From a virus (Duplodnaviria > Caudoviricetes), in IMG/VR virus record IMGVR_UViG_3300025875_000021, positions 1-63,293 of that record: a stretch of 63,293 nt of DNA; one strand, given 5' to 3'. Positions within the stretch are counted from its first letter, which is position 1; the number at the start of each line of letters is the position of its first letter. Under the pieces are notes generated by a model. It was not told where the DNA came from. It did no database searches and was given only the letters and a program-made list of their open reading frames with translations. This document shows, in pieces, positions 1-63,293 of this stretch. Both the position numbers and the translations under genes were made by a program.

Positions 1-127
1 ACCGAGCAGGAGTTCGCATCGGCATCGCCGGCGTACAAGCAGGTCGCGTTCAGCTGGAAGATGCAGGGTAAGTAGTTCTCGCGAGATATTCATGCCCTAT
101 AACGAGAACCCACCACTCTGATCGAAA
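1..127. repeat. Terminal overlap, identical to 63167-63293 (circular assembly)
   Basis: accgagcagg...gatcgaaa occurs at both ends; 127 bp equals a common assembler k-mer; it cuts through gene 62627-63241. Confidence 0.95.
79..111 (+). promoter_or_regulatory. Conserved phage promoter-like motif
   Basis: TCGCGAgatattcatgcccTATAACgagaaccc; same motif as 10 other intergenic copies. Confidence 0.85.
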
Positions 128-16828: not shown

Positions 16829-16862
16829 TCGCGAGAATTACAAGGGCTATAATGAGAACCCC
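16829..16862 (+). promoter_or_regulatory. Conserved phage promoter-like motif
   Basis: TCGCGAgaattacaagggcTATAATgagaacccc. Confidence 0.85.
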
Positions 16863-17099: not shown

Positions 17100-17134
17100 T
17101 CGCGAAATTTTCATGGCCTCTAATGAGAACCCCC
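17100..17134 (+). promoter_or_regulatory. Conserved phage promoter-like motif
   Basis: TCGCGAaattttcatggccTCTAATgagaacccc. Confidence 0.85.
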
Positions 17135-19850: not shown

Positions 19851-19878
19851 GCCACCCAATACCAGGAAATGGAGCATT

Positions 19879-20249: not shown

Positions 20250-20261
20250 GGAGGTGAGAAA

Positions 20262-21491: not shown

Positions 21492-21597
21492 AACCTTTCC
21501 CAGAATGGTCTATAAAATACCATTAATGGAAACATGGTATTTTGTAGAGCCTCTAGAGAGTTTTTTCCGTCATAAATCTTGGCAAGATCGGAGTCTC

Positions 21598-22098: not shown

Positions 22099-22110
22099 AG
22101 TGGTAAGAGT

Positions 22111-22140
22111 ACGTGCTCAATACATGGCCTATAATAGAAG
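22111..22140 (+). promoter_or_regulatory. Divergent copy of the promoter motif, upstream of the nuclease-RNAP operon
   Basis: ACGTGCtcaatacatggccTATAATagaag; same 13-nt spacing and catggcc core. Confidence 0.65.
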
Positions 22141-22182
22141 GGGGAAGATCAAGCCTTCTCATTTTCAGCCTTTGGAGGGGCC

Positions 22183-22485: not shown

Positions 22486-23014
22486 ACACGCCTTCATGAG
22501 CGCTAGTAGTGGCGCTTGGCTGAACTACGATGACGAAAAGCTCGAGCGAGTCTATATTGCTAAGATGGCGGCCCAACGGGGAACCGACCTGCATGCCTGG
22601 GCTGCTGAGACGATTCGTCTTGGCGTGCGTCAGGCTGAGAACGGTACCACCCTGAATCTTTACGTCAACGACTGTATCGGATTCAAGATGAATCCCGAGC
22701 AGCCAGTAGCATATTCACGTAACGCGTTCGGTACTGCAGATGCTCTGGGTTTTAGGCAGAACATCCTTCGGATCTTTGATCTCAAGACTGGGGTCATCGC
22801 AGTTACCAAGCCGCGTCAACTCGAGATCTACGCCGCATATTTCTGCCTCGAATACGAGGTGAGTCCGTTTGATCTCGATGAGATCGATCTCCGGATCTAC
22901 CAGAGCGATGAGTGTAAGTCATGGGCCGCTAACCCCATGGATATTCATCTGATCATGCAGCAGGTAGTACACAAGGACAAGATCATCGAGAAGCAGCGGG
23001 AGGAGTTGGAGTGA
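22451..23014 (+). CDS. RecB/Cas4-like PD-(D/E)XK exonuclease
   Basis: GTG 22451 after gaggagg; GTDLHAWA, FGTADA, IFDLKTG, QLEIYA. Confidence 0.8.
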   Translation: MRLNRHSELAGRHAFMSASSGAWLNYDDEKLERVYIAKMAAQRGTDLHAWAAETIRLGVRQAENGTTLNLYVNDCIGFKMNPEQPVAYSRNAFGTADALGFRQNILRIFDLKTGVIAVTKPRQLEIYAAYFCLEYEVSPFDLDEIDLRIYQSDECKSWAANPMDIHLIMQQVVHKDKIIEKQREELE

Positions 23015-25764
23015 TCCTTACTGAGGACCAGCTCGCGCACTACGGCATTCTTCGGAAGTCAGGACGATATCCTTGGGGATCTGGTGGTCCTGAGGAGGCT
23101 AGCAACGCAGGCTTCTTGGGGCTGATCGACAAGCTCAAGAAGGAAGGTCTCACGGAGCCTGAGATCGCCAAGTACCTGTCCACTGACGAGCACCCAGTTA
23201 CGACCACTTCTCTTCGTGCAGCAAAGTCAATTGCAACCAACGAAGAGCGTGCTTCCCGTATCGCTCAGGTTCAGCGGATGCACGACAAGGGTATGTCTAA
23301 TGGCGCCATCGCAGAGCGACTCGGTATTGCGAACGAGTCCTCAGTTAGGTCCCTCCTGCAGGCAGGAGCCCAGGACAAGGCTGACCAGCTCCAGTCTGTT
23401 GCTTCCATGCTCGAGCGCCAAGTGGCAGACAAGCAGTTTGTCGATATTGGTACTGGTGTAGCCCAGCAGCTCGGTCTTTCAGAGTCTCGTCTCGCTACTG
23501 CGGTTGAGATTCTTAAGCAGAAGGACTACACTGTCCAAAACGTTCAGGTAGATCAGGTTGGCATGGGCCCTGGGAACAAGACCACGGTCAAGGTGCTAGC
23601 CCCTCCTGGTACGACCTATCGCGATATTGTGACTCAGAAGGACAAGATCTCACAGATCAACGAGTTCTCTGATGACGGTGGTCGCACCATGAAGCTTATG
23701 CAGCCTCCTATGAGTATCGACTCAAAGCGGGTTGCAGTCAAGTACGGCGAGGACGGCGGAGACAAGGCTGACGGTGTCATCTACGTTCGCCCAGGCGTTG
23801 ATGATATTTCAATCGGCGCTAACCGCTATGCTCAGGTACGCATTGCGGTTGATGGTACTCACTTCCTGAAGGGTATGGCCGTCTACAAGGACGACCTTCC
23901 TGACGGTGTGGACCTGATGTTCAACACCAACAAGAGCAACAAGGGCGACAAGCTTGCAGCCATGAAGCCTATGAAGGCGGAAGAAGACAATCCGTTCGGT
24001 GCCATGGTTAGACAGCGTCTCGGCCCGGACGGTAAGCCAAACTCCGTGATGAACATCGTCGGCATCAAGGAAGGCTCAGGTGAGGAAGGCGCTTGGGAGA
24101 TGTGGTCTAAGAACCTGTCTACCCAGATGCTTTCTAAGCAGAGCCCCCAGCTGATCAGGGAACAGCTGGATATCACGTATGAGCGAAAGAAGCGAGAGCT
24201 TGATGAAATTCGAGCTCTAACGAACCCGACTGTTCGTACAAAGCTTCTCGATTCCTTCGCTGATGGCGCTGACTCTGCAGCTGTGCACCTCAAGGCTGCA
24301 GCTCTGCCACGTCAGTCGACTCGCGTTATTCTTCCCGGAGCCTCGGTCAAGGACAACGAGATCTACGCTCCTGGTTTCAAGAACGGTGAGCGTGTCGTTC
24401 TGATCCGATATCCTCACGCGGGTGTGTTCGAGGTTCCCGAGCTAACGGTAAATAACCGTAATCGTGAAGGCCTCAACACGATTGGCAAGGATGCCAAGGA
24501 CGCGGTCTTGATTAACCACAAGACGGCTCAGAAGATGTCTGGTGCCGACTTCGATGGCGATACGGTCATTGTTATTCCAAACAACAATGGCAAGATTCGT
24601 ACAGCACCCGCACTCCAGGGACTCAAGGGCTTCGATCCTCAGCGCGCATATCCTGCGTACGATGGAATGAAGACGATGGGTGGCGGAAAGTGGGACGCAG
24701 CCAAGGGACGTGAGGTATATCCTGAAGGCAAGGGTCCCTCTGGTAGGACCAAGGGCATGCAGATGGGCATGGTATCCAACCTTATCACGGATATGACGAT
24801 CCGTGGTGCTAGCATGGAGGAAATGGCACGAGCTGTTCGTCACTCCATGGTGGTCATCGATGCTGAGAAGCACTCGCTGAACTGGAAGGAATCGGCCAAG
24901 GCAAACGGTATATCTGCCCTGACCGCAAAATATCAGCCCCGTGATGACGGTCGTACCACAGGTGGTGCATCAACCCTTATATCTAGGGCTGGTTCTGAGA
25001 CGAGGATTGATAAGCGTCGGCTTCGTCCTGCCCAAGATGGCGGTCCTGTTGACTCAATGACAGGCAAGAAGGTGTACGTCAACACCGGTGAGTCATATCA
25101 GGATAAGCAGGGACGCACGGTCATGCGTAAGGAGTCCATCGAGAAGCTGGCCCTAACGGATGACGCACGCACCTTATCTTCGGGTACTGTGCAGGAGACT
25201 GCTTACGCTACCCACAGCAACCGACTCAAGGCCCTGGCTAACGAGGCACGTAAGGAGACCCTGGGGGTGCCGCGTGTTCCTTACTCCCCCTCTGCTAAGA
25301 AGACGTATGCTGCTGAGGTCGAGGCTCTGAATGCCAAGCTGAATACGGCTATCCGGAACCGCCCCCTCGAACGACAGGCCCAGGTCCTGGCAAGCACCCA
25401 GGTGCAGCTGAAGCGGCAGTCTAATCCAGACATGGATAGGGCTACAGTGAAGAAGGTCGAGACCATGGCCCTCACTGAGGCCCGTCTTCGTACCGGTGCA
25501 CAGCGTCAGCTCATCGACATCACAGAGAACGAATGGAAGGCCATTCAGGCTGGTGCTATTACCAATGCCAAGCTAGAGGCCATCCTACAGAAGGCAGACC
25601 TAGACCAGGTCAAGCAGTATGCCATGCCACGTGAGGCACCTGTGATGTCTAGTTCTATGGCTACTAGGGCACGCAGTATGTCTAAGTCTGGGTATGATCA
25701 GGCTGAGATTGCTGAGGCTCTTGGTGTGTCACTCACTACTCTGAAGACCAGTCTCGCTGACTGA
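23011..25764 (+). CDS. Putative single-chain two-barrel (DPBB) RNA polymerase with HTH domains
   Basis: FLKGM, LIRYPH (RYP at 24406), MSGADFDGD (DFDGD at 24547-24561), GMVSNLITD..HSMVVIDAEK; HTH-like segments at both termini. Confidence 0.75.
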   Translation: MILTEDQLAHYGILRKSGRYPWGSGGPEEASNAGFLGLIDKLKKEGLTEPEIAKYLSTDEHPVTTTSLRAAKSIATNEERASRIAQVQRMHDKGMSNGAIAERLGIANESSVRSLLQAGAQDKADQLQSVASMLERQVADKQFVDIGTGVAQQLGLSESRLATAVEILKQKDYTVQNVQVDQVGMGPGNKTTVKVLAPPGTTYRDIVTQKDKISQINEFSDDGGRTMKLMQPPMSIDSKRVAVKYGEDGGDKADGVIYVRPGVDDISIGANRYAQVRIAVDGTHFLKGMAVYKDDLPDGVDLMFNTNKSNKGDKLAAMKPMKAEEDNPFGAMVRQRLGPDGKPNSVMNIVGIKEGSGEEGAWEMWSKNLSTQMLSKQSPQLIREQLDITYERKKRELDEIRALTNPTVRTKLLDSFADGADSAAVHLKAAALPRQSTRVILPGASVKDNEIYAPGFKNGERVVLIRYPHAGVFEVPELTVNNRNREGLNTIGKDAKDAVLINHKTAQKMSGADFDGDTVIVIPNNNGKIRTAPALQGLKGFDPQRAYPAYDGMKTMGGGKWDAAKGREVYPEGKGPSGRTKGMQMGMVSNLITDMTIRGASMEEMARAVRHSMVVIDAEKHSLNWKESAKANGISALTAKYQPRDDGRTTGGASTLISRAGSETRIDKRRLRPAQDGGPVDSMTGKKVYVNTGESYQDKQGRTVMRKESIEKLALTDDARTLSSGTVQETAYATHSNRLKALANEARKETLGVPRVPYSPSAKKTYAAEVEALNAKLNTAIRNRPLERQAQVLASTQVQLKRQSNPDMDRATVKKVETMALTEARLRTGAQRQLIDITENEWKAIQAGAITNAKLEAILQKADLDQVKQYAMPREAPVMSSSMATRARSMSKSGYDQAEIAEALGVSLTTLKTSLAD

Positions 25765-25783
25765 TAGGAAAGGAAGGAACGTC

Positions 25784-26050
25784 ATGCAAGAACACATGCT
25801 CAGCACTATCGACAATCCTTACAATCCATTCACTCAGTTCGATGAGTGGTTTGCTTTCGATACACGAAGTGGTTACAACACTTGTGGATTGTTAGCACGG
25901 ATTGCCGTCACCTCGGACGATCTGTCTGATGGTGATCAATCCTTGGCCTACGAGCAGGCTGTCAACGAGATTATGGAGTTCAACGTCACTGGCATGTTCA
26001 TCAGGGTGACACCGGACTACGTGCCTCGTGTGAGACTTGCTGCAGTGTGA
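25784..26050 (+). CDS. Conserved hypothetical protein following the RNAP-like gene
   Basis: MLSTIDNPYNPFTQFDEW..GYNTCGLLARIA; strong RBS. Confidence 0.8.
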   Translation: MQEHMLSTIDNPYNPFTQFDEWFAFDTRSGYNTCGLLARIAVTSDDLSDGDQSLAYEQAVNEIMEFNVTGMFIRVTPDYVPRVRLAAV

Positions 26051-26086
26051 GTTCTAGGTAATCCGCTGCAGTCGTAGGTTACAAAC

Positions 26087-26130
26087 ACAGACCAACCGAA
26101 CCCAACTTCCCTGGGGTTCGGTTGGTCTGT
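26087..26130. terminator. Perfect 17-bp inverted repeat ending the early/middle operon
   Basis: acagaccaaccgaaccc / gggttcggttggtctgt. Confidence 0.7.
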
Positions 26131-26200
26131 CATAACAACTAAACATGGACTCTTAATTTTTGCGCGGAAACTTTCAGAGTCTCGAAGTTCAAAGAGGGGG

Positions 26201-26275
26201 GAGGGGGGTCCCCGCGAAACCGGACCCCCCTCTGCATCGCCGCCCCGATCCATATTTCCCCGGGGGTCATATTTG
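26201..26275. other. Candidate cos / packaging-start region
   Basis: Non-coding gap before small terminase and HNH; 11-bp IR 26201-26232; CGCCGCCCC at 26238-26246; CATATTT twice. Confidence 0.55.
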
Positions 26276-26340
26276 AGCAAAAGTTTCATGATCATCGGGC
26301 CGGGAAGGTAGGGGGAAGTCCCTGGAAAGGAGTTAGAACT

Positions 26341-26700
26341 GTGCCAGCCAGGCGAGTAAACGATCAGAACGATGTCGCAACACTTCGGCCTGCGGCCACT
26401 ACTCCTCAGCGTAGAGAGAATCAGCTCACTGAACTAGCCTGGGAGCTAGCAGAGAAGCAGATTCGCGATGGAACGGCCTCCGCACAGGTGATTTCTCACT
26501 TCCTCAAGATGGGCTCGAGTCGAGAGCAGCTTGAGCAGCAGAGATTGCGCCACGAGAACGAGCTAACCCAAGCCAAGATCGCTGGTATGGCCGCTGTCGA
26601 GCGCATCGAGCAGAAGTACGACGCCGCACTGAAGGCTATGCGCCGTTATTCAGGTCAGGACGAACCAGAGGCGGAGCCAGTCACTGAGGAGTACCAGTGA
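26341..26700 (+). CDS. Putative terminase small subunit
   Basis: First gene of the late arm; RENQL..LA..LAEKQIRDGTASAQVI; call is positional. Confidence 0.55.
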   Translation: MPARRVNDQNDVATLRPAATTPQRRENQLTELAWELAEKQIRDGTASAQVISHFLKMGSSREQLEQQRLRHENELTQAKIAGMAAVERIEQKYDAALKAMRRYSGQDEPEAEPVTEEYQ

Positions 26701-27104
26701 TTCGAGTTTACAGAGAGCTACGACGCCGGGAGACCTTTGAGGACCGGTTTGAGTACTTGAAACTAAGCGGCGACGTCGGTAGATCCACATTCGGATTCGA
26801 TCGACACATCAATCAGCGGTTCTATCGGTCAAGGCAGTGGAAGCAGGTCCGACAGTACGTCATTGCAAGAGATCTAGGTCTTGACCTTGGCGTTGACGGC
26901 TATGAGATCCACACTGAGATCTTGATTCACCACATGAATCCGATTTCTGCTCAAGACATCATGCAAGGTGACGAGTCGATCCTCGATCCCGAGTTCCTCA
27001 TCACCACAACGCACAAAACCCACAATGCTATTCACTACGGCGACGCCAGCCTCCTTCCGGGGCTTGTTGTCGAACGCCGACCGGGAGATACCCGGCTCTG
27101 GTGA
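26697..27104 (+). CDS. HNH endonuclease (packaging-associated)
   Basis: FYRSRQWKQVR..RD, IHHMNP, THKTHNAIH. Confidence 0.85.
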   Translation: MIRVYRELRRRETFEDRFEYLKLSGDVGRSTFGFDRHINQRFYRSRQWKQVRQYVIARDLGLDLGVDGYEIHTEILIHHMNPISAQDIMQGDESILDPEFLITTTHKTHNAIHYGDASLLPGLVVERRPGDTRLW

Positions 27105-27118
27105 TCCAAGGAGGAACG

Positions 27119-27316
27119 ATGTACGGAGCATACCGCGCCACCGAGGAGCGACTCCTCACCACGCCCGATCTCGACGACATTCCTGAGGATGAGTCCGCTG
27201 AGCCTCTCGATGCTGACGTTCAGCACCTCGCAACCAACGAGGAGGTCGACGAGCTGCTCGAGCTGGAGGAGGCCACGGCCCCCGATCCAACCACTGACAA
27301 GGAGGATGACGCATGA
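27119..27316 (+). CDS. Small acidic protein
   Basis: RBS ggagg; coupled to the lysin gene. Confidence 0.6.
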   Translation: MYGAYRATEERLLTTPDLDDIPEDESAEPLDADVQHLATNEEVDELLELEEATAPDPTTDKEDDA

Positions 27317-28251
27317 CCGCGCAGATCAAGGGCTTCGTAACCCGAGCCGACGCAGGACTTCGTAGTCCTCGCTCCATCAGTCGAAAGATTACGCCCGGCA
27401 ACGGAGGCTGTGCACCCCACTACGGTGGTCCGCCGCAGCCCGCTGCCAAGTTCGGCTCTTCGCACCAGGTGTGTATCAACACTTGGAAGGCGTGGCAGAA
27501 CTACCACATGGACACGCATGGCTGGTCCGACATCGCCTACACGGCCGGCTTCTGTAACCACGGGTTTGTGTTCGCTGGTCGCGGTCATGGTATCCGTACT
27601 GCTGCCAACGGAACGAACTACGGCAACCAGAACTTCTACGCCTTCGTCTGGATCGGTGGAGAGGGTCAGCAGCCCAGCCAGTTGGCCTACGACGCTTGCG
27701 ACTGGCTCATTGAGGATGCTCGAACCAAGGGCGCCGGCCGTGCAGTCAAGCCGCACCGTTTCTTCAAGTCCACCGGGTGTCCTGGTGACCCGTTCGCCAA
27801 CTACGCTCGTCTCCGTGATGGTCTGAACATCGCCACGGCCTCGCATGTCAGTCCGCCGGCTCCTGCCTCGCCTCGTCCGACCTCGATCGCCGCAACCATC
27901 TCGCACAACCGGGTTGACCGAGAGCGGACCAAGCGATTCCAGGCTCACCTCCGCATCACTGCGGATGGTCTGTGGGGAGACACCACTGATCTGCGAGCTC
28001 GCCGGGCTCGAACTGGAGCTCTCGCTCGTGCGGGCTTCCCGCCCACCAAGGAGATCCACGACGTTCGCGCCCTGCAGGAGCTTGTCGGCACCAAGGTCGA
28101 CGGTGTCTGGGGTCCCGACTCTCAGGCCAAGCTCCACGCTTGGATCGAGGGTGTTCAGACACTCCTCACTGTCACTCGAGACGGAGTGTGGGGTTCGCAC
28201 ACCGACTCGGCATTCCTGCAGTTCCGTCTCGCCAACCTGAACAAGTTCTAA
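27313..28251 (+). CDS. Endolysin: N-acetylmuramoyl-L-alanine amidase plus PG-binding repeats
   Basis: HMDTHGWSDIAY, FAGRG, PHRFFKSTGCPG; three DGxWG repeats. Confidence 0.9.
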   Translation: MTAQIKGFVTRADAGLRSPRSISRKITPGNGGCAPHYGGPPQPAAKFGSSHQVCINTWKAWQNYHMDTHGWSDIAYTAGFCNHGFVFAGRGHGIRTAANGTNYGNQNFYAFVWIGGEGQQPSQLAYDACDWLIEDARTKGAGRAVKPHRFFKSTGCPGDPFANYARLRDGLNIATASHVSPPAPASPRPTSIAATISHNRVDRERTKRFQAHLRITADGLWGDTTDLRARRARTGALARAGFPPTKEIHDVRALQELVGTKVDGVWGPDSQAKLHAWIEGVQTLLTVTRDGVWGSHTDSAFLQFRLANLNKF

Positions 28252-28272
28252 CCACCTGAAGGAGGTGTCTAC

Positions 28273-28656
28273 GTGAGCAGCAGCATCCTTACCACTACAA
28301 AGAAGGCTCTCGGCTTGCCCGAGGACTATACGGCCTTCGATCCTGAGCTGGTGATGCACATCAACAGCGCGCTGGCAACGCTGAACCAGATCGGAGTGGG
28401 TCCACAACAGGGATTCATGATCGAGGATGCTGCTGCCACGTGGGAAGAGTTCATCGGTGTCGACCCAAGGCGCAACAACGTCAAGCAGCTCGTCTACCTC
28501 AAGGTTCGTCTCGTCTTCGATCCCCCGGGAACCTCGTTTCTGCTGACAGCTTTCCAGGAGCAGATTCAACAGCTCGAATGGCGAGTGCTTGTCACTGAAG
28601 AGTCGGGTCCGATCGCAGCTCCGACAGAGATCGTCCTCGACGGTGGACAAAGCTAA
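28273..28656 (+). CDS. Head-to-tail connector-like protein
   Basis: SILTTTKKALG..FD.ELVMHINSA..L.Q.G, VYLKVRLVFDPP, LEWR; ends in VLDGG. Confidence 0.65.
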   Translation: MSSSILTTTKKALGLPEDYTAFDPELVMHINSALATLNQIGVGPQQGFMIEDAAATWEEFIGVDPRRNNVKQLVYLKVRLVFDPPGTSFLLTAFQEQIQQLEWRVLVTEESGPIAAPTEIVLDGGQS

Positions 28657-28667
28657 GGAGGCGGACC

Positions 28668-28946
28668 GTGGAGACGAACTACCGCTTCAAGTTTCGTCGA
28701 GTTATGCCCGGCACCGACCCGGTACTTCTTGAACGAGAGCCCGGTTTCGATCTTGATGCCGGAGTGTTCAAAATCGGAGATGGTTACAGTCGTTGGTCCC
28801 AGTTGAAAACATACATGCCCCAACGGTCTGGCTCACAGGAAGACATTCCTGCAGCGCTAGTAGACCACATCGAGTCGGAACTGCCTCACCCCGTCTATGA
28901 TGACGGACCATCCCTGTCCTTGATCTATCAAAACGCAAAGGTATAG
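28668..28946 (+). CDS. Small protein with an Mtd/hyaluronidase-type N-terminal domain
   Basis: PVLLEREPG.D...FKIGDG...WSQL. Confidence 0.65.
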   Translation: METNYRFKFRRVMPGTDPVLLEREPGFDLDAGVFKIGDGYSRWSQLKTYMPQRSGSQEDIPAALVDHIESELPHPVYDDGPSLSLIYQNAKV

Positions 28947-28949
28947 CCC

Positions 28950-29513
28950 ATGTCACTTCAGACCCGCATTGCCGATCTCGTCACAGCGATCGGTACTGAC
29001 ATCAAGCAGCTCCGCGTCTGGACCACGGGCTCTGCCAGTGGTTCTCTGACCGGTCTGACTACGACCACCAAGACCGACATCGTCTCGGCCATTAACGAGG
29101 TCAACGCCAAGCCCGTCGGTAACACTCCGGGTACAGCGACCGAGACTCAGCAGGGTATCGTCGAGCTTGCAACACTCGCCGAGGTCGCCACAGGTACTGA
29201 CGCTACTCGAGCGGTAACGGCAGCGGGTGTTAGGCAGGAGCGCCTGGCCCTTAAGACGGAGATTCTAGGCGTCAACGTCCCGGCGGCTCTCGACACTCTC
29301 GACGAGCTTGCTCAGTCAATTGGGGACAACGCCGACTTTGCTGGGGCAACGACTGCGGCCCTTGGGAATCGGCTTCGGATCGACGTCAGCAACCAGGCAC
29401 TGACCACAGCACAGCAGGTGAACGGTCAGACCAACCTCAACGTCTACAGCAAGACGGAGATCGGCAATCCTGAGACCGATCTCGTCGCTGTCTACGCCAC
29501 TGCGAAGGCGTGA
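28950..29513 (+). CDS. Virion fibre/adaptor protein
   Basis: LTTTTKTDIVSAINEV, ATETQQGIVELAT, PAALDTLDELA fibre motifs. Confidence 0.7.
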   Translation: MSLQTRIADLVTAIGTDIKQLRVWTTGSASGSLTGLTTTTKTDIVSAINEVNAKPVGNTPGTATETQQGIVELATLAEVATGTDATRAVTAAGVRQERLALKTEILGVNVPAALDTLDELAQSIGDNADFAGATTAALGNRLRIDVSNQALTTAQQVNGQTNLNVYSKTEIGNPETDLVAVYATAKA

Positions 29514-31171
29514 GTCTGGAATCTCGCCTCATAGCTCTGGTTCAGGCTATCGGGGCGGACGTCAAGAGCTTGCGTTCGTCGACGGGTACGGCACCAACTG
29601 TCGCTTGGGTAAATTCAGTTCAAGAGGCTGATGCTCTTCCTCCGGGAACACTCGCCATTATTCTTGGATCTGTTGGTAAGTACCTCCAGACGTGGGCTGA
29701 TGTCACAGCGAAGGCCGCAACCGAGCCAATCTATATCGCACACCGAGGTGGTGGTACTTCACTCGCCAAGGACGGAGCAATCTCCTCTGTTGAGTGGGTC
29801 AAGTCAACCGGGCTTGCTCTCAACAACATGATTGTTGATGGTGGAGATGGCCGAGTGAGTTCGAACGGCATTCTTGTCGTGTCGCATGACGACCTTACGG
29901 GAACACTATTCGATCAGAACCTCTCAGTCACTGCATCAACGGCAGCCGCCTTGACGAATCTTAATTTCCGGGACTTCCCACTCTATCGAGGAACGATCTC
30001 GACAGAGAAGATGCCGACCATGCTTCAGTACTTGACGGCGTGTAAGGCTGCAGGAATTTTCGCTGTTCCGGAGATCAAGACGGATGCCGGGGCCACGCTT
30101 ATTCGAGACATCGTGGTGGAGCTGGGCATGCAGACGCAGACTCAGGTTCAGGCATTCGCGTCCACAGCTGCGCAGGCCAACCTTCGTCTCGGTCCTAGTC
30201 GTGCCGCCGGAATTTCTGTTGGGTTGCTGCAGAACACGGGCACCAACAACATCGGATTCCCGGCAATCAAGACGTGCGTCAACGGCGGAGCGCCGGACGT
30301 TGTGCTCTACGATCCGGCAGCCGATCCGGGTAATGCTTGGATCTCGGCAGCGATTGCTGCCGGCATCAAGCTTCAGGTGGGAACAATTGAACGGCACGTT
30401 ATTCGAGATGCTCAGCGAGCTCGAGTAGAAGGTCTGGGAGGCAAGGTCTCCTTCTTCGTGTCTGATGATCCGTTCTACACGGCCGGGAAGACTCTTAGGA
30501 AAACTGCTAGCAATTTCTCGTCACACGTGCAGCACGGCCTTATTGAGTCGGATACGTCGGCGCCTCTGACAGTCAACACAGTGCTTCAGAGGCTACAGTT
30601 CCATGATGCAGACATCCAGTTCTCTCTGTGGGGCGAGCTTTCCGCTACAACGATCGAGGATCACTGGCGGACGCTTGAGTACGATCTGACGTTCGACGCT
30701 CTTGATACTGAGGGTCAGGGCGACTCAGGCCAACGGTGGTTTGCTGTTTTCTTCGGTGTTCCGGATGACGCATCCTTGCATGACGGTGTTCAAAACCCGT
30801 CTGGAGCGATTTCGTTTCACTTCCGGCAGTCCGGCTACATGGACATGTACAACCGAACTAGTTCCACGGTCTCAACTCGTGTTGCAAGTACAAGCCCCAC
30901 GGCATCGCCCGAGACTATGGGTGCTCGACGGGACACGAACAACGCTCCAGTAGTCACCGGACAAACGGTTCGGATACGAATCGAGAATCTTGTTGATTCC
31001 GCGGGCGTGCTCCTTAACCAGGTGCGAGTCACTCGGCTTGACACGGGTCAGTGGATTCAGTGTCCGGTAGGTAGCGCACCTCTTCGCGGTGGTTATGTGC
31101 ACTTTGGTCGAAACGGAACTTTCGGACTAAAGAATTCCATTTCCAACGTCACCGCTACCTATAGAAGCTAG
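29510..31171 (+). CDS. Virion-associated glycerophosphodiester phosphodiesterase (GDPD)-domain protein 1
   Basis: IAHRG, D.R.SS.G.LVVSHD, MPTM, EIK, FVSDDP. Confidence 0.75.
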   Translation: MSLESRLIALVQAIGADVKSLRSSTGTAPTVAWVNSVQEADALPPGTLAIILGSVGKYLQTWADVTAKAATEPIYIAHRGGGTSLAKDGAISSVEWVKSTGLALNNMIVDGGDGRVSSNGILVVSHDDLTGTLFDQNLSVTASTAAALTNLNFRDFPLYRGTISTEKMPTMLQYLTACKAAGIFAVPEIKTDAGATLIRDIVVELGMQTQTQVQAFASTAAQANLRLGPSRAAGISVGLLQNTGTNNIGFPAIKTCVNGGAPDVVLYDPAADPGNAWISAAIAAGIKLQVGTIERHVIRDAQRARVEGLGGKVSFFVSDDPFYTAGKTLRKTASNFSSHVQHGLIESDTSAPLTVNTVLQRLQFHDADIQFSLWGELSATTIEDHWRTLEYDLTFDALDTEGQGDSGQRWFAVFFGVPDDASLHDGVQNPSGAISFHFRQSGYMDMYNRTSSTVSTRVASTSPTASPETMGARRDTNNAPVVTGQTVRIRIENLVDSAGVLLNQVRVTRLDTGQWIQCPVGSAPLRGGYVHFGRNGTFGLKNSISNVTATYRS

Positions 31172-57937: not shown

Positions 57938-58416
57938 TGACACAAGTAGAGCAAGGAGATGTCAACACAAAGAATCGACGATGGTTTGGGCTGAGGCCTT
58001 GGGGTCGTCACAGTCTTGTCCTGCTGGTCGCGGGACTAGCCTATGTGTTCATCGGACTAACATATCTGATCACACCGAACAATCTTGCCCGGGCCGAAAG
58101 TCTGGTCATCGCAGAAAGGTGGTGGGAGCTCGAGTACTGGTACGCCGTCTTTGTGCTTGTTGGGGTTCTCACAGTCATTTCCTCGAGATGGCCGCCTACC
58201 GCCGATAAGTGGGGCTACATGACCCTTACCGGATTCACTGCCGGGTGGGGTGCGTTCTACATGACGGGGGTGATATTTAAGGACACAGGTATCGCCAACC
58301 TTGGAGGAGCGCTCATCTGGTGGTTGGTCGCATTCATGTGGTGGGCTATCAGTGGGCTGAACAATCCGCCCAAGGTGATTGTGAAGGTCGTGGAGGTGAT
58401 TCGCAATGCTAGATAG
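57937..58416 (+). CDS. 4-TM membrane protein (lysis region)
   Basis: Four hydrophobic segments. Confidence 0.75.
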   Translation: MTQVEQGDVNTKNRRWFGLRPWGRHSLVLLVAGLAYVFIGLTYLITPNNLARAESLVIAERWWELEYWYAVFVLVGVLTVISSRWPPTADKWGYMTLTGFTAGWGAFYMTGVIFKDTGIANLGGALIWWLVAFMWWAISGLNNPPKVIVKVVEVIRNAR

Positions 58417-58804
58417 CGGCGATATTGCCAGCATGATCGTTGCGCTCATTGCGGCGTATGGTGCATACGCAGCACACAGAGCTTCGGGTAAGGCTACGGC
58501 TGCACAAGCCAGCACAACGGCGGATGCCAACACGGCTATAGCCCGAACAAATGCGGAGGAGCAGGCTTACGTGCGTGCTCGTAAGTTCGACAGCGACACC
58601 ATTGAGCGACAGGATCGAGAACTGGACGAGCTTAGAGAGTCAAACCGCCTCAAGGAGGAGGAGCTTAAGTTGCTTCGGCCTCTGGTCGAGGAAGTTCGAA
58701 TCCTTCGTGCACGAGTTCAAAGACTTGAGCGAAACCTCACATCTCACGAAAAGGAGCCCAATGACGACCAACACGACCGCCACGTCCCCCTTCCTTCCGA
58801 GTAG
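58406..58804 (+). CDS. TM plus coiled-coil protein (lysis region)
   Basis: N-terminal TM, heptad-rich C-terminus. Confidence 0.7.
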   Translation: MLDSGDIASMIVALIAAYGAYAAHRASGKATAAQASTTADANTAIARTNAEEQAYVRARKFDSDTIERQDRELDELRESNRLKEEELKLLRPLVEEVRILRARVQRLERNLTSHEKEPNDDQHDRHVPLPSE

Positions 58805-59138
58805 GGTGTACGATGCACTGGTGTGGATTGCGCAGATCTTCCTGCCCGCTGTAGGCGCGCTGTACTACGGTCTCGCCGACCTCTGGAATCTGCCTCTGGC
58901 TATTCAGGTCGTCGGAACCATCACCCTGGTAGACCTCTTCTTGGGCACTCTGCTGAAGGTTAGCAAGAGCAACTACAACAAGGCAGAGGCTTGGGCGGAC
59001 GGGAAGATGATCGTCCATCATGAGGACGGCGTTCCCGTCGGCATCAATGCGGATCTGGAGAACATCCGGAGCCCTCTCGGTATTTCTGATCAGGATCGAG
59101 TGACATTCAAGGTTGTGCACAACGATCTTGAGGTGTAA
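58761..59138 (+). CDS. Holin (Dp-1-like)
   Basis: RBS aaggag; VYDAL.WIAQI.LPA.GALY..LA..W.LP..VVGTI..VD.FLG.LL..S..Y. Confidence 0.8.
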   Translation: MTTNTTATSPFLPSRVYDALVWIAQIFLPAVGALYYGLADLWNLPLAIQVVGTITLVDLFLGTLLKVSKSNYNKAEAWADGKMIVHHEDGVPVGINADLENIRSPLGISDQDRVTFKVVHNDLEV

Positions 59139-59142
59139 CACC

Positions 59143-59175
59143 TCGCGAAGGATACACGGGCTATAATGAGACCCC
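59143..59175 (+). promoter_or_regulatory. Conserved phage promoter-like motif
   Basis: TCGCGAaggatacacgggcTATAATgagacccc. Confidence 0.85.
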
Positions 59176-59195
59176 TAACCCTTGAGGAGAACGCC

Positions 59196-59489
59196 ATGTT
59201 CAAGCACAAGACCCACACCGAGACCCCTCGTGTCGAGACGGTCATCGACCTCCTGCTCTACAAGATGGAGACCCACACAGACCCCAGCTCCGCTGAGTAC
59301 GCCAAGATGGTGGACCAGTACGTCAAGCTCCAGGGCGCGAAGGTGCACACCGCACACAAGCCCCTGGACCGCAACGCACTGCTCGCCATCGCCGGCAACC
59401 TCATCGGCATCGGGATCATCGTGGGTCACGAACGAGCACACGTCGTGACCTCCAAGGCACTCGGTTTCATCGGTAAGGTCACCACCTGA
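59196..59489 (+). CDS. Cassette protein
   Basis: RBS gaggag; GNLIGIGIIVGHERAHVVTSKALGF. Confidence 0.8.
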   Translation: MFKHKTHTETPRVETVIDLLLYKMETHTDPSSAEYAKMVDQYVKLQGAKVHTAHKPLDRNALLAIAGNLIGIGIIVGHERAHVVTSKALGFIGKVTT

Positions 59490-59519
59490 TCCGCACAACC
59501 TCCAGCTAGGACCACCAAG

Positions 59520-59568
59520 CGCAGAGGGCGTGTACGAGAGATATTCCAACTCGTACACGCCCTCTGCG
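59520..59568. terminator. Perfect 19-bp inverted repeat
   Basis: cgcagagggcgtgtacgag / ctcgtacacgccctctgcg followed by ttt. Confidence 0.75.
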
Positions 59569-59598
59569 TTTGTCCTACATGGGCTATCAATTTTTGCC

Positions 59599-59632
59599 TC
59601 GCGAGAAGTACAAGGCCTCTAATGAGAACCCC
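59599..59632 (+). promoter_or_regulatory. Conserved phage promoter-like motif
   Basis: TCGCGAgaagtacaaggccTCTAATgagaacccc. Confidence 0.85.
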
Positions 59633-59654
59633 ACCCTCTATTGAAGGAGTCCCC

Positions 59655-59921
59655 ATGAAGAAGATCATCGCAGCCGCAGCGGTCACTGGCTTCGTCATCT
59701 GGGCCGTCCCAGCCGCCGTTGCTGGCTTCGTGGACGGACTCTCAGAGCAGCTTGCTCCCCGCTTCCCGGACGTCGACCTCGACACCATCCGGATCGTGTA
59801 CCGCAAGTTCCTCTGGAAGTCCTTCACGGGCCAGCTGCCCGACCTGGACGACCTGGACGACGACGCCATGGACACGCTGTTCCGCGTCGAACTCTTCAAC
59901 TACCTCGCCAACAAGAAGTAA
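59655..59921 (+). CDS. Cassette protein, N-terminal hydrophobic
   Basis: RBS aaggag. Confidence 0.8.
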   Translation: MKKIIAAAAVTGFVIWAVPAAVAGFVDGLSEQLAPRFPDVDLDTIRIVYRKFLWKSFTGQLPDLDDLDDDAMDTLFRVELFNYLANKK

Positions 59922-59928
59922 GTTCCAG

Positions 59929-59957
59929 CACTCAGAGCCCCACAAGGGCTCTAAGTG
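59929..59957 (+). terminator. Cassette-end hairpin (CCACAA-type loop)
   Basis: cactcagagccc-cacaa-gggctctaagtg. Confidence 0.7.
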
Positions 59958-59963
59958 TCACTC

Positions 59964-59996
59964 TCGCGTGATATTCATGGCCTCTAATGAGAACCC
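59964..59996 (+). promoter_or_regulatory. Conserved phage promoter-like motif
   Basis: TCGCGTgatattcatggccTCTAATgagaaccc. Confidence 0.85.
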
Positions 59997-60013
59997 AACA
60001 TCGAGGAGTAGCT

Positions 60014-60247
60014 ATGAAGCTGTTTCAGAACAAGGCACTCTCGCTGACTGTCACCAACAACCCCCAGCCCCCCACCGACTCTTCTGAGCCGGCAACGTCC
60101 AAACGCGTGGATGCAGACGCGATCGCCCAGATCGCCATGTACCACGCGAACCACGCTGCCGCGCTCATATCTGCGGTGTACGTGGGCCGGAAGGTCGTCA
60201 ACACTGCCTGCGAGATCGCCATCATCGCCGCCAACAAGCGCCTCTAG
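60014..60247 (+). CDS. Cassette protein
   Basis: RBS gaggag. Confidence 0.8.
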   Translation: MKLFQNKALSLTVTNNPQPPTDSSEPATSKRVDADAIAQIAMYHANHAAALISAVYVGRKVVNTACEIAIIAANKRL

Positions 60248-60256
60248 TAGTTCCAC

Positions 60257-60285
60257 GACCGAGAGCCCCACAAGGGCTCTTAGTC
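60257..60285 (+). terminator. Cassette-end hairpin (CCACAA-type loop)
   Basis: gaccgagagccc-cacaa-gggctcttagtc. Confidence 0.7.
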
Positions 60286-60286
60286 T

Positions 60287-60320
60287 TCGCGATATATTCA
60301 TGGCCTATAATGAGAACCCC
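60287..60320 (+). promoter_or_regulatory. Conserved phage promoter-like motif
   Basis: TCGCGAtatattcatggccTATAATgagaacccc. Confidence 0.85.
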
Positions 60321-60343
60321 ACCCAGAATTCAAGGAGATCCCC

Positions 60344-60580
60344 ATGAACAGCAGCCTCAAGACTGAGATCGTTGCCATGGCCATCCGCCAGCTTTCGCCC
60401 ACCTCCAAGACCCACAACTCCAGCGCCTCGTTCGACTCGTTCTTCTCCGTCCTCGTGACGGGCAAGACCGTCGAGCAGGCGCAGGCCGAGCAGATCGTCG
60501 AGGTGATCGAGAACGGCGTGAAGGCCGTGAAGACCCTCATCACTCGCCGCCACTTCAACAAGATCGTCAAGAACATCTGA
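60344..60580 (+). CDS. Cassette protein
   Basis: RBS aaggag. Confidence 0.8.
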   Translation: MNSSLKTEIVAMAIRQLSPTSKTHNSSASFDSFFSVLVTGKTVEQAQAEQIVEVIENGVKAVKTLITRRHFNKIVKNI

Positions 60581-60590
60581 CCCATCTCAC

Positions 60591-60622
60591 AGACTCAGAG
60601 ACCCCACAAGGTCTCTCAGTCT
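60591..60622 (+). terminator. Cassette-end hairpin (CCACAA loop)
   Basis: Identical to 17060-17091. Confidence 0.75.
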
Positions 60623-60628
60623 AAGCGT

Positions 60629-60660
60629 TCGCGAAAAATTCATGGTCTCTAATGAGAACC
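60629..60660 (+). promoter_or_regulatory. Conserved phage promoter-like motif
   Basis: TCGCGAaaaattcatggtcTCTAATgagaacc. Confidence 0.85.
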
Positions 60661-60685
60661 ATCAACCCTCTATGAAGGAGACCCC

Positions 60686-60880
60686 ATGAACACTGCCGTC
60701 GTCAAGACCGCTGCTGTCACCGTCAAGAACTTCGCCACCGCACACCCCACCGCCACCGCAGCAGCCGCCAACGCCGCTTCCGCTGTCGCCGGGTACACCG
60801 CGGCCGGCATCGTCCTGAAGGTCCAGCGCCGTCGCGCCGTCAAGAACGTCATGAAGTCCGCCACCTCGCAGAAGATCTAG
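60686..60880 (+). CDS. Ala-rich cassette protein
   Basis: RBS aaggag. Confidence 0.8.
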   Translation: MNTAVVKTAAVTVKNFATAHPTATAAAANAASAVAGYTAAGIVLKVQRRRAVKNVMKSATSQKI

Positions 60881-60885
60881 TTCCG

Positions 60886-60924
60886 AGCTGAGAGCCCCCG
60901 TCACCAAGACATGGGCTTTCAGTT
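60886..60924 (+). terminator. Cassette-end hairpin
   Basis: agctgagagccc...gggctttcagtt. Confidence 0.6.
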
Positions 60925-60930
60925 TGTCTC

Positions 60931-60964
60931 TCGCGACATATTCATGGCCTCTAATGAGAACCCC
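60931..60964 (+). promoter_or_regulatory. Conserved phage promoter-like motif
   Basis: TCGCGAcatattcatggccTCTAATgagaacccc. Confidence 0.85.
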
Positions 60965-60981
60965 AACCTGAGGAGTACCCC

Positions 60982-61161
60982 ATGAACAACCGCCCCGTCA
61001 CCATCGAGGACGTCAAGGCCATGGACGCCCAGGACCTCACCGCGCTCCAGCGTCAGGCGGCTCGCAACCTCGTCAACTTCGTGTTGATCAAGGTCGCGAT
61101 CGCCGTGACGTGCAGGTACGCGGTCAAGGCCCTAGTCCGACACCTGGACAGCCTCGACTAG
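60982..61161 (+). CDS. 59-aa cassette protein (not in ORF track)
   Basis: RBS gaggag; MNNRPVTIEDVKAMDAQDL...HLDSLD. Confidence 0.75.
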   Translation: MNNRPVTIEDVKAMDAQDLTALQRQAARNLVNFVLIKVAIAVTCRYAVKALVRHLDSLD

Positions 61162-61199
61162 TTCGAGCCGTTCGCTCATATCCCAGCTACCGTTCCAAG

Positions 61200-61223
61200 C
61201 TAAACACCGAACTTGGTGTTTAG
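61200..61223 (+). terminator. Cassette-end hairpin
   Basis: ctaaacacc-gaactt-ggtgtttag. Confidence 0.65.
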
Positions 61224-61231
61224 TCTTTGCC

Positions 61232-61261
61232 TCGCGAATTTTTCATGGCCTGTAATGAGAA
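61232..61261 (+). promoter_or_regulatory. Conserved phage promoter-like motif with no gene directly downstream
   Basis: TCGCGAatttttcatggccTGTAATgagaa. Confidence 0.8.
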
Positions 61262-61387
61262 GAGATCCGCAATGGATTCCGAGACACGACTGAGCAGGTG
61301 AAAACCCTGCCCGGAGTGCCAGTCACAAAAGATAAGACTGGTTAACGAATTGTTATCATTGGACAATTACCTCTTCTCTTGTTTTTT
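61257..61387 (+). ncRNA. Candidate small multibranched RNA
   Basis: 5' gagaagag pairs with 3' ctcttctc; four internal hairpins; T-tract; no RBS or ORF. Confidence 0.6.
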
Positions 61388-61441
61388 CTGAGACACCTAC
61401 CTGGTGTCTAAGCTTTGCCCATATCCCGAGAGGAAGTCGCC

Positions 61442-61621
61442 ATGTACGTCTTCAGAACGCGCAACAAGCCGACCCACATCATCGTCGCAGGAGAGCGCTT
61501 CATGGTCAAGCCGCGCTACAAGCTCACCACGTTCATCCTCGACCTCATCCTCGCCTGTGTCACGGGTGGTCTGTGGTTGCTGTGGCCGCTGTTCAAGTTC
61601 CTCCGGAACGGGCGCCGCTGA
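61442..61621 (+). CDS. Small membrane protein
   Basis: RBS gagg; FILDLILACVTGGLWLLW. Confidence 0.75.
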   Translation: MYVFRTRNKPTHIIVAGERFMVKPRYKLTTFILDLILACVTGGLWLLWPLFKFLRNGRR

Positions 61622-61622
61622 C

Positions 61623-61787
61623 ATGCTCGAGTTCCTGATGGGTGTCGCCGGTACAGGCCTTGCAATCCTGATCGTCGTTTCCCTGGCCGCTTTCCTGTGG
61701 GGGATGGGTAGCTTGATCAGCTACCTGATCCGCCAGTCCAACGCCAACCCGGCCTTCGCGGCCCAGCTGAAGAGGAGCAACCTGTGA
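61623..61787 (+). CDS. Small membrane protein
   Basis: MLEFLMGVAG.. hydrophobic. Confidence 0.6.
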   Translation: MLEFLMGVAGTGLAILIVVSLAAFLWGMGSLISYLIRQSNANPAFAAQLKRSNL

Positions 61788-62569
61788 GAAGTCTCACCGA
61801 GATCGTCAAGGTCACCGAGAAGCTGGCGATCGACAACTCGCCGGCGCTCCTGACGGCAGTCGGAGTCGTGGGTACCATTTCCACGGCGGTCTTTGCTGCA
61901 CGAGGAGCATTGCGATACGACGAGGCGGTGAACATCGAAATCGAGTACCGTCGGCAAAACGACCCCTCGTTTGTGAGCGTCCTCGATCCGCGCACTCGAG
62001 TCATGCTCATGGGTCATCACTTCGGCCCCGCGATCATCGTCGGCAGCCTCACCGTCACCGCGATCATCGGAGCCAACCGGATCGGTACTCGTCGGGCAGC
62101 TGCTATGGCTGCGGCGTACACCATCGCGCAGGAGGGCTTCGACGAGTACAAGTACAAGGTGCGTGAGAAGATCGGCGAGAACAAGGAGCGTGCGCTGCGT
62201 GACGACATCGCACAGGATCGCGTGAATCGTAACCCGGCCGGTGAGAGCAACGTCATCATTGTCGGCTCAGGAGATGTTCTCTGCTACGAGATGATGAATG
62301 ATCGCTACTTCCAGAGCTCCGTCGAGGAGATCAAGAAGGCGATGAACGACACGAACTACCAGGTCAACAACGACTCGTACGCATCGCTGTCGGACTTCTA
62401 CGACCGCGTTGGGCTTCCCCACACGTCCGTCTCCGACTCGATCGGGTGGCGGAGCGACGAGAAGCTTCTCGAGATCGAGTTCAGCACGGTGCTGGCTCCG
62501 GATGGTCGACCTTGTGTCGCCTTCGACTTTCGGGTCGATCCCGTTCGCAACTACCACAAGCTCCACTAG
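61784..62569 (+). CDS. Conserved phage protein (DUF6353-like), paralog of 1410
   Basis: NSPALLTAVGVVGTISTAV, AAAMAAAY, YASLSDFYDRVG..IGW. Confidence 0.8.
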   Translation: MRSLTEIVKVTEKLAIDNSPALLTAVGVVGTISTAVFAARGALRYDEAVNIEIEYRRQNDPSFVSVLDPRTRVMLMGHHFGPAIIVGSLTVTAIIGANRIGTRRAAAMAAAYTIAQEGFDEYKYKVREKIGENKERALRDDIAQDRVNRNPAGESNVIIVGSGDVLCYEMMNDRYFQSSVEEIKKAMNDTNYQVNNDSYASLSDFYDRVGLPHTSVSDSIGWRSDEKLLEIEFSTVLAPDGRPCVAFDFRVDPVRNYHKLH

Positions 62570-62626
62570 GGACTACTGCTCGTAGTACCCGTACATCCCA
62601 CATCCGTCATATCCGAAAGGCACAAC

Positions 62627-63241
62627 ATGATCAAGATGCCCGTCACCTTCCCCGACCTCGACAACAACACGCGCACGGTGGACTTCTGGTTCCACATGAG
62701 CAAGACCGACATCGCCGACTGGGTCGTCAGTCACAAGATGTCGCTCGAGGACCAGATCCGCGACATCGTCAAGCGCGAGGACAACGAGGCCCTGTTCGCC
62801 CTGTTCCGTGAGCTCATCGAGGTCTCGTACGGTGAGCGCCACGCGAACGGCATCACCTTCAACAAGTCGAAGGAGCTGTCTCGGAACTTCGTGCAGTCCA
62901 ACGCGTACTCCGAGCTGTTCGTCCTGCTCATGAAGGACGAGGCAGTGGCTTCGAAGTTCGTGCGAGGCATCATGCCCAGCGACATCGCTTCGCAGATGCC
63001 GGAGGACCTCCCGTCCCTCGAGGAGATCGCCGACGGCATCAAGACCGAGGGTGTCAAGAGCCTCATCGGAGACGGTGCGTTCGACGGCGACGTCATCATC
63101 ACCGACACGCCGGCGCCCGAGTACCCGGACGACGCGCCGCAGTGGTTCAAGGAGGAGCGACCGCCGACCGAGCAGGAGTTCGCATCGGCATCGCCGGCGT
63201 ACAAGCAGGTCGCGTTCAGCTGGAAGATGCAGGGTAAGTAG
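62627..63241 (+). CDS. Conserved hypothetical protein
   Basis: TF.DLD..DFWFHMSK, SYGER..G..F.K, F.QS.AY..LF..L. Confidence 0.8.
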   Translation: MIKMPVTFPDLDNNTRTVDFWFHMSKTDIADWVVSHKMSLEDQIRDIVKREDNEALFALFRELIEVSYGERHANGITFNKSKELSRNFVQSNAYSELFVLLMKDEAVASKFVRGIMPSDIASQMPEDLPSLEEIADGIKTEGVKSLIGDGAFDGDVIITDTPAPEYPDDAPQWFKEERPPTEQEFASASPAYKQVAFSWKMQGK

Positions 63242-63293
63242 TTCTCGCGAGATATTCATGCCCTATAACGAGAACCCACCACTCTGATCGAAA
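63167..63293. repeat. Terminal overlap copy of 1-127
   Basis: Exact duplicate; includes the promoter motif starting at 63245. Confidence 0.95.

Follow-up and report, generated by a model that had tools for sequence, protein, structure and literature searches.

A repeated ~32-bp element in a family of tailed phages as the probable promoter of a phage-encoded, putatively two-barrel RNA polymerase

The window analysed here, i.e., the whole stretch of 63,293 nucleotides of the IMG/VR virus record IMGVR_UViG_3300025875_000021 (Caudoviricetes), carries a sequence element of ~32 bp that is repeated on one strand and is clustered in the interval 59143-61261, directly 3' of the tail genes. We propose that this element is probably the promoter of the phage's own two-barrel RNA polymerase (RNAP), putatively encoded at 23011-25764, rather than a promoter of the host housekeeping holoenzyme. 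Among the readings considered, recognition by the phage enzyme is the most likely one because the motif recurs in distant relatives that all carry the same RNAP gene.

The repeated element and the polymerase gene

When the window was scanned with TCGCGA-N6-CA-N5-TNTAAT-GAGA, allowing at most one mismatch, 11 matches were found, all on the + strand, where 0.00 were expected from 100 dinucleotide-preserving shuffles. The matches at 79 and 63245 are one and the same copy because of the 127-bp end overlap of the record, and the distinct copies are thus 10 in number (79, 16829, 17100, 59143, 59599, 59964, 60287, 60629, 60931, and 61232, all +). It is the GAGA after the hexamer and the internal CA that carry the statistical signal of the motif; the looser consensus proposed in a first-pass annotation of the same sequence is by itself not significant, with 11 matches against 6.1 expected. 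The coordinates which that annotation had given all hold, including the identity of 79 and 63245, and ten of its eleven copies are distinct strict ones, whereas the eleventh, at 22111, is a core-only variant without TCGC. The strict copies and the open reading frames (ORFs) behind them, together with hairpins and their free energies (dG, kcal/mol) where noted, are as follows.

79..111 (= 63245-63277), + strand: motif copy with TATAAC, before ORF 137-439 and the replication module
16829..16861, + strand: motif copy with TATAAT, before ORF 16882-17046 (54 aa)
17100..17132, + strand: motif copy with TCTAAT, before ORF 17152-17292 (46 aa) and the next small genes; hairpin 17060-17091
59143..59175, + strand: motif copy TCGCGA-N13-TATAAT-GAGACCCC, before ORF 59196-59489 (97 aa, phrog_5818, function unknown)
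59599..59631, + strand: motif copy with TCTAAT, before ORF 59655-59921 (88 aa, hydrophobic N-terminus); hairpin 59524-59564, dG -28.3
59964..59996, + strand: motif copy with TCGCGT and TCTAAT, before ORF 60014-60247 (77 aa); hairpin 59928-59958, 5 nt upstream
60287..60319, + strand: motif copy with TATAAT, before ORF 60344-60580 (78 aa); hairpin 60257-60285, 1 nt upstream
60629..60661, + strand: motif copy with TCTAAT, before ORF 60686-60880 (64 aa); hairpin 60591-60622
60931..60963, + strand: motif copy with TCTAAT, before ORF 60982-61161 (59 aa, phrog_15974); hairpin 60884-60926, dG -25.1
61232..61264, + strand: motif copy with TGTAAT, then GAGAAGAG; no ORF; heads a candidate non-coding RNA

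In all ten copies, TCGCGA and the hexamer are separated by exactly 13 nt, as the first-pass annotation had stated, and the hexamer itself is TCTAAT in five of them, TATAAT in three, and TATAAC and TGTAAT in one each. An ATG lies 25-33 nt after the hexamer, with a GGAG-type ribosome-binding site (RBS) before it, in nine of the ten copies, the exception being 61232, which had already been singled out as lacking an ORF. The genes behind the copies encode products of 46-100 aa of unknown function, several of them with a hydrophobic stretch, and a strong post-stop hairpin (dG -13 to -28 kcal/mol) stands 1-34 nt upstream of seven copies. The interval 59143-61261 is in this way a row of self-contained units composed of promoter, leader, RBS, small ORF, and hairpin; in the structural module (26341-59138), no copy of the motif was found. 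With regard to the hairpins themselves, identical 32-nt structures (AGACTCAGAGACCCCACAAGGTCTCTCAGTCT) occur at 17060-17091 and 60591-60622, ahead of two different copies, and related hairpins with a CACAA loop occur at 59928-59958 and 60257-60285. These hairpins may represent a terminator type peculiar to this transcription system.

Conservation of the motif was assessed in 24 records, namely the window itself, 15 IMG/VR contigs, and 8 isolates, the latter being picked solely for possessing the polymerase gene (8 of 250 polymerase-bearing phage records were examined). Scanning with TCGC-N15-TNTART-GAGA returned 118 matches, spread over 20 of the 24 records and confined to one strand in each, and a reversed-pattern control returned 0. 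A second set of sites, selected only by CA-N5-TNTART and a purine-rich start, comprised 132 sites from 18 genomes with GC contents of 34-61%, almost all of them on the coding strand. With +1 assigned to the base that follows the hexamer, the unselected columns -25 to -22 of this set read T/C/G/C at genome-averaged frequencies of 0.92/0.98/0.96/0.94, A reaches 0.83 at -14 and G reaches 0.78 at -10; positions +1 to +4, at which the selection required mostly purine, are G/A/G/A at 0.86/0.85/0.77/0.92, and C dominates +6 and +7. The hosts of the motif-bearing phages belong to two phyla and include Streptomyces, Arthrobacter, Gordonia, Curtobacterium, and Lactococcus. The Lactococcus phage 1706, with a GC content of 34% and a polymerase that is 38% identical, has 12 copies of the form TTTACA-N5-TATAGT-AGAAAGAAGG.

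The family comparison also shows which parts of the motif are general. The palindrome TCGCGA, stressed in the first-pass annotation, is local, because across the family only TCGC is kept, the fifth base being G or A and the sixth variable; with TCGC alone conserved and no palindrome, a dimeric operator is unlikely. Of the spacer words ttcatggcc and acaaggcc, to which the same annotation had drawn attention, the CA and one G are conserved and the rest is not. No earlier description of the motif was found in the searchable literature, the scope of which ends short of two founding papers of the family and of all supplements, where a prior description is possible; in the accessible portions of two family papers (10.1101/842583; PMC5513430), the word "promoter" is absent.

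The gene that accompanies the motif and its downstream neighbour are the following.

23011..25764, + strand: putative single-polypeptide two-barrel RNA polymerase (P0001), 917 aa
25784-26050, directly downstream of the polymerase: 88-aa protein, phrog_4303 (E 7.7e-36)

Identification of the gene 23011-25764 as a polymerase is plausible. Its 917-aa product matches phrog_4291 over the full length (E = 0) and contains, within SGADFDGDTV, the motif ADFDGD at residues 512-517; an alignment of homologues shows ADFDGD unchanged in 7 of 7 sequences. The protein has an N-terminal helix-turn-helix (HTH; residues ~79-107) and a C-terminal HTH that resembles sigma-70 region 4 (residues 894-915). A search of its sequence against the chains of the PDB returned 0 matches. 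The top Foldseek matches of an AlphaFold model, which is itself poor, are all two-barrel RNAPs at TM-scores of only ~0.2 (QDE-1, E 3e-5; plant Pol IV; RDR2; phage P74 gp62; P32 gp64; and P23-45 gp96). By tblastn, the polymerase gene is present in 250 phage records with 37-56% identity. According to Koert et al. (10.1101/842583), the same protein, which an actinophage supercluster shares with Lactococcus phage 1706 and Faecalibacterium phage FP_oengus, was proposed by HHpred to be an RNA polymerase with an HTH at both ends. The polymerase is gp86 in Rima and gp98 in Circum, and the GenBank record of phage 1706 labels the homologue (orf75) "structural protein". As for the 88-aa protein, a small gene occupies the same place after the polymerase in 7 annotated relatives (syntenic in all 7 that have it), which makes its product a candidate polymerase partner or specificity factor.

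The motif and the polymerase gene co-occur. The strict pattern TCGCGA-N13-TMTAAT-GAGAACC is found in 15 of ~2.9 million IMG/VR contigs (17 stretches; the fetched loci have 40-60% GC), and a polymerase homologue is encoded by 8 of these 15, namely by every one of the 8 whose completeness reaches 61%. The 7 strict-pattern contigs without a polymerase are at most 45% complete, and 5 of the 7 carry the protease-capsid fusion gene of the family. The primase-polymerase of the window was found in 0 of these 7 fragments, a result that is uninformative because they hold the structural half of the genome. Among the polymerase-bearing isolates, 7 of 8 have the motif or its core variant. Outside the phages, a search of 185,579 prokaryote species, each represented by one genome, returned 0 matches to the strict pattern, and a degenerate pattern of ~37 bits matches 10 stretches in bacterial genomes, where ~9 are calculated by chance. 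One contig of a metagenome-assembled genome has two copies, and this genome encodes the polymerase (59% identity); the polymerase was absent from all 4 tested bacterial genomes with a single match.

A variant of the motif precedes the polymerase operon itself.

22111..22159, + strand: core-only variant, CA-N5-TATAAT-AGAAGG, then hairpin AGAAGG/CCTTCT and CATTTT
22183-22485, downstream of the 22111 variant, in the RNAP operon: VRR-Nuc
22331-23014, downstream of the 22111 variant, in the RNAP operon: Cas4-like exonuclease

At this site ACGTGC replaces TCGCGA and AGAAGG replaces GAGAAC. A core-only variant without TCGC is also present before the same operon in Rima (52005) and Circum (54406), with starts of the form AGAAGG or GAGGGA; by eye, the sites of Duffington and FP_oengus are similar and keep the CA, and divergence at that place is seen in Scap1 (CG) and Yotsuba (CT). 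Directly 3' of the variant promoter there is a hairpin with a T-run (22136-22165), which may be an attenuator, and similar leader hairpins with T-tracts are found in Duffington, FP_oengus, and Circum.

Start site, mechanism, and alternative readers

The position of the transcription start is suggested by the copies that lack an ORF.

61257..61387, + strand: candidate non-coding RNA, 131 nt after the hexamer of copy 61232; minimum free energy -40.2 kcal/mol, z -3.49

The closing helix of this candidate RNA (GAGAAGAG/CUCUUCUC) starts at the first base past the hexamer and is followed by UUGUUUUUU; a search of the window against Rfam at gathering score returned 0 families. In 8 other phages, purine-rich ORF-less copies likewise precede structured RNAs of 60-130 nt, the ends of which are paired just before a T-tract. 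A helix of at least 6 bp is anchored at offsets -2/-1/0/+1 in 7/6/7/6 of 10 loci (9 phages), and at offsets of -3 and below or +5 and above in 0-1 of 10 loci. Because the closing helices start at offsets -2 to +1 in 6-7 of 10 loci, the 5' end of the RNA is inferred to lie no more than ~2 nt from where the hexamer ends, which would make the hexamer a -6 to -1 element, as in T7-type promoters. These RNAs are not called one family because RNAalifold, applied to a MAFFT alignment of 8 ORF-less RNAs, found no shared structure; what recurs across them is only the arrangement of closing helix and T-tract. A clearly similar internal stretch is common to the ORF-less RNAs of Circum and of record G015.

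In the mechanism that we propose, the promoter would span approximately -25 to +7, with TCGC at -25 to -22, CA at -13/-12, and T-N-T-A-R-T at -6 to -1, followed by G-A-G-A and C-rich bases, and the copies would be used by the phage polymerase (23011-25764), one HTH domain of which may read the TCGC. After the tail genes, the motif would build short units of promoter, 25-33 nt leader, RBS, small ORF, and hairpin; it would also stand before the replication module and before a single small structured RNA, and a weaker, TCGC-less variant would drive the polymerase's own operon. Delivery of the enzyme into the cell by the virion is possible, and the annotation of the 1706 homologue hints at it. A more far-reaching form of this proposal, namely a self-sufficient, promoter-specific polymerase whose HTHs read TCGC and CA and whose core reads TNTART-GAGA and initiates at the edge of the hexamer, and which, delivered by the virion, runs the entire non-structural programme of this phage family, in both host phyla, without host RNAP, is put forward tentatively, as possible rather than probable. 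Much of this was anticipated in the first-pass annotation, whose proposals of a non-housekeeping promoter, of a phage RNAP or a host RNAP with a phage factor as its reader, and of a copy at 22111 driving the RNAP operon gain comparative support. This support comes from the recurrence of the motif in relatives of 34-61% GC with hosts in two phyla, from its co-occurrence with the RNAP gene (8 of 8 motif-bearing contigs at least 61% complete), from the chance-level bacterial matches, from the varying second hexamer base, and from the core-only variant which, in relatives as in the window, precedes the operon of VRR-Nuc, Cas4, and RNAP.

It has to be noted that several points weigh against the phage polymerase as reader. 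The link between this enzyme and the promoter is drawn wholly from comparison, and the co-occurrence on which it leans would fit any gene common to the whole family, e.g. that of the 88-aa phrog_4303 protein. FP_oengus encodes the polymerase, yet it has just two weak candidate sites. (The same phage has 36 copies of TGATATTT on the + strand and 2 on the - strand, often near start codons; this repeat is unrelated to the motif studied here.) The AlphaFold model, built on a 7-sequence alignment, is poor, with a mean predicted local distance difference test (pLDDT) score of 64.6 and a predicted template modelling (pTM) score of 0.35. If the operon of the polymerase needs the polymerase, another starter is required, either packaged enzyme or host RNAP, and the motif serves early-looking small genes and replication genes, unlike the late operon of the Bacillus prophage polymerase YonO. 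Finally, the second hexamer position is A in 4 of the 10 copies (3 TATAAT, 1 TATAAC), and a missing -35 element is common among actinobacterial SigA promoters; some of the copies might thus be open to host RNAP.

The last point leads to the reading in which the copies are strong early promoters recognized by the host SigA holoenzyme via the TATAAT-like hexamer, with TCGC and GAGAACC being extras of the lineage (UP-element-like or part of the mRNA leader), and which we regard as unlikely. TATAAT is the hexamer of 3 of the 10 copies here and of the majority of sites across the family (genome-averaged A at the second position of 0.72), the genes served look early in that they are small, of unknown function, and equipped with their own terminators, and many actinobacterial promoters function with a -10 element alone. 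However, an A at -11 is essential for recognition of the -10 element by the sigma-70 family, and whole sets of sites have C, G, or T at the putative -11: 6 of 10 copies in the window (A 4, C 5, G 1), 5 of 5 in record G007 (TCTAAT), 6 of 9 in record G008 (TGTAAT), and 5 of 8 in Yotsuba (TTTAAT). The hexamer does not qualify as a sigma-70 -10 box, since all four bases occur at its second position and it lacks a -35 element; a TG extension is absent too, and the TTTACA of Lactococcus phage 1706 lies 5 nt from the hexamer, not 17. A register shifted by two bases gives TAATGA, with no T at -7. Scanning for the sigma-70 consensus gave 0 sites in 58400-63293 and, in 16000-30000, 6 sites against 5.2 expected, none of them at a motif copy. 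Moreover, the motif is not enriched in bacterial genomes, and a start 6-8 nt downstream of the hexamer would cost the closing helices of the ORF-less RNAs their 5' arm.

A host core RNAP redirected by a phage specificity factor, be it the 917-aa protein through its sigma-like HTHs or another family-wide protein such as the 88-aa product of 25784-26050, would account for the co-occurrence equally well, as any family-wide phage factor would. In such a case, the 917-aa protein would not itself transcribe these genes. The region-4-like HTH at its C-terminus, the HTH at its N-terminus, and the synteny of the small gene in all 7 annotated relatives having it agree with this, but the invariant ADFDGD and the two-barrel fold matches point to a polymerase proper, and conservation that extends across the inferred start is what single-polypeptide phage polymerases typically show. 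Besides, no sigma region 2 was found in the 917-aa protein or in the 29 other ORFs scanned with Pfam, which revealed no sigma or HTH domain in those 29 (30 of ~77 candidate ORFs were scanned in all), and we consider this alternative doubtful as well.

That the repeats are not promoters at all, i.e., that they are oriented regulator sites or passengers of a small-gene cassette duplication, is highly improbable: although they are multi-copy, intergenic, and of one orientation, like the stoperators of Cluster A mycobacteriophages (PMC13313380), and although the identical hairpins at 17060-17091 and 60591-60622 show some cassette duplication, the same positions are conserved in 18 genomes from two host phyla despite different ORFs downstream, RBS and start codon follow at a fixed distance, structured RNAs ending in T-tracts follow the ORF-less copies, TCGC alone is conserved with no palindrome, and, unlike the scattered stoperators of 13-14 bp, they span ~32 bp and occur only at fixed distances before start codons or RNA starts, clustered at 59143-61264, 79, 16829-17132, and 22111.

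Genome context

The contig is a phage genome assembled as a circle, because its first 127 bases recur exactly at 63167-63293. The unique length is 63,166 bases with a GC content of 56.6%, and the + strand carries nearly all genes. The 127-bp overlap resembles an assembly overlap (from a circular or concatemeric molecule) more than a biological terminal repeat, and the class assigned by IMG/VR is direct terminal repeats. The replication module (primase-polymerase at 3854-7573, ThyX, ssDNA-binding protein, and helicase) is followed by the operon of VRR-Nuc, Cas4-like exonuclease, and 917-aa protein (22183-26050) and then by the structural module (~26341-59138), with a terminator-like hairpin at ~26091-26130 between the polymerase operon and the late genes. 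A near-identity DNA search of 58000-62500 against phage records returned 0 matches, and a look-up of RNA sequencing runs containing 58400-63166 returned 0 runs.

A cos-like region at 26190-26275, consisting of GGGGGGAGGGGGGTCCCCGCGAAACCGGACCCCCCTCTGCATCGCCGCCCC and then ATCCATATTTCCCCGGGGG, matches the physical genome ends, right and left, that are conserved among Scap1, Circum, Duffington, Rima, and even Lactococcus phage 1706. An end of the packaged genome is probably located near 26240, which would place the polymerase operon at the right genome end; it is likewise at the right end in the 6 complete isolates (FP_oengus excepted). Further features include a tRNA-Phe (GAA) at 19250-19329, two DUF6353 paralogues (61784-62569 and 1410-2306), a protein with the tail-assembly-chaperone domain Phage_TAC_17 at 62627-63241, i.e., outside the structural module, and the sole long minus-strand ORF, a candidate gene of 476 aa at 27220-28650 (-), the rest of the genome being on the + strand.

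Relation to known transcription systems

Single-polypeptide two-barrel RNAPs (YonO, crAss gp66, and those of P23-45) are studied as minimal kin of the cellular RNAP, and the way in which they find promoters is largely open. Here, a sharply defined consensus of ~32 bp extends from Lactococcus to Streptomyces phages and is tied to one polymerase clade with its own DNA-binding domains, and promoter recognition is therefore testable in isolated phages (the Streptomyces phages Rima and Scap1, the Arthrobacter phage Circum, the Gordonia phage Duffington, and the Lactococcus phage 1706). If the proposal is true, the polymerase and its promoter could be an orthogonal expression system for high-GC Gram-positive bacteria; if the enzyme should moreover prove self-sufficient, this would be the first defined promoter of a YonO-like enzyme and a portable system of one protein and one promoter for Actinobacteria and Firmicutes. 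The motif would also account for the rows of independent small genes that have been noticed in such phages.

The promoters of the T7 group are similar in that they, too, come as many near-identical copies on one strand, show continuous conservation of more than 20 bp that reaches into the first transcribed bases, and belong to units that are separated by terminators. In sites of the Rima/Scap1 type, the core TATAGTGAGA is identical to the T7 core, TATAGGGAGA, in 9 of 10 positions. Since the enzymes are unrelated, the one here being putatively two-barrel (like multisubunit RNAPs and QDE-1) and that of T7 having a Pol-I-like fold, the T7-like core is at most a convergence and may be a coincidence; in addition, the motif here has the extra TCGC at -25 to -22. 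With the sigma-70/SigA promoters the motif shares a TATAAT-like hexamer that is preceded, at constant spacing, by a second hexamer, and it differs from them in its spacer of 13 nt as opposed to 16-18, the lack of TTGACA, the variable second base, and an inferred start beside the hexamer.

The closest parallels are with other single-polypeptide enzymes. The RNAPs of the Thermus phage P23-45 (gp96 in the virion, gp64 non-virion) are two-barrel proteins with promoter motifs of their own, AT-rich or GC-rich, which were defined by Oxford Nanopore (ONT)-cappable-seq and chromatin immunoprecipitation sequencing (ChIP-seq), and the promoter motif is present only in relatives carrying the enzyme (10.1101/2022.12.01.518664); the promoter here is, in contrast, proposed from comparison, and the enzyme has an HTH at both ends. 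YonO of the Bacillus prophage SPbeta is a single polypeptide as well, encoded by a siphophage and with a catalytic loop of the DxDGD type, and transcribes a single late operon from a promoter whose sequence is left undefined in the accessible part of that study (PMC5467207), whereas in the present phage there are many candidate promoters, which stand before small genes, replication genes, and the RNAP operon. The virion RNAP gp66 of the crAss-like phage phi14:2 is a divergent two-barrel RNAP, and the label of the 1706 homologue hints at virion delivery as for gp66; the early gp66 transcripts are described, in the accessible part of the report (10.1101/2020.03.07.982082), without a common upstream motif, unlike the strong motif found here.

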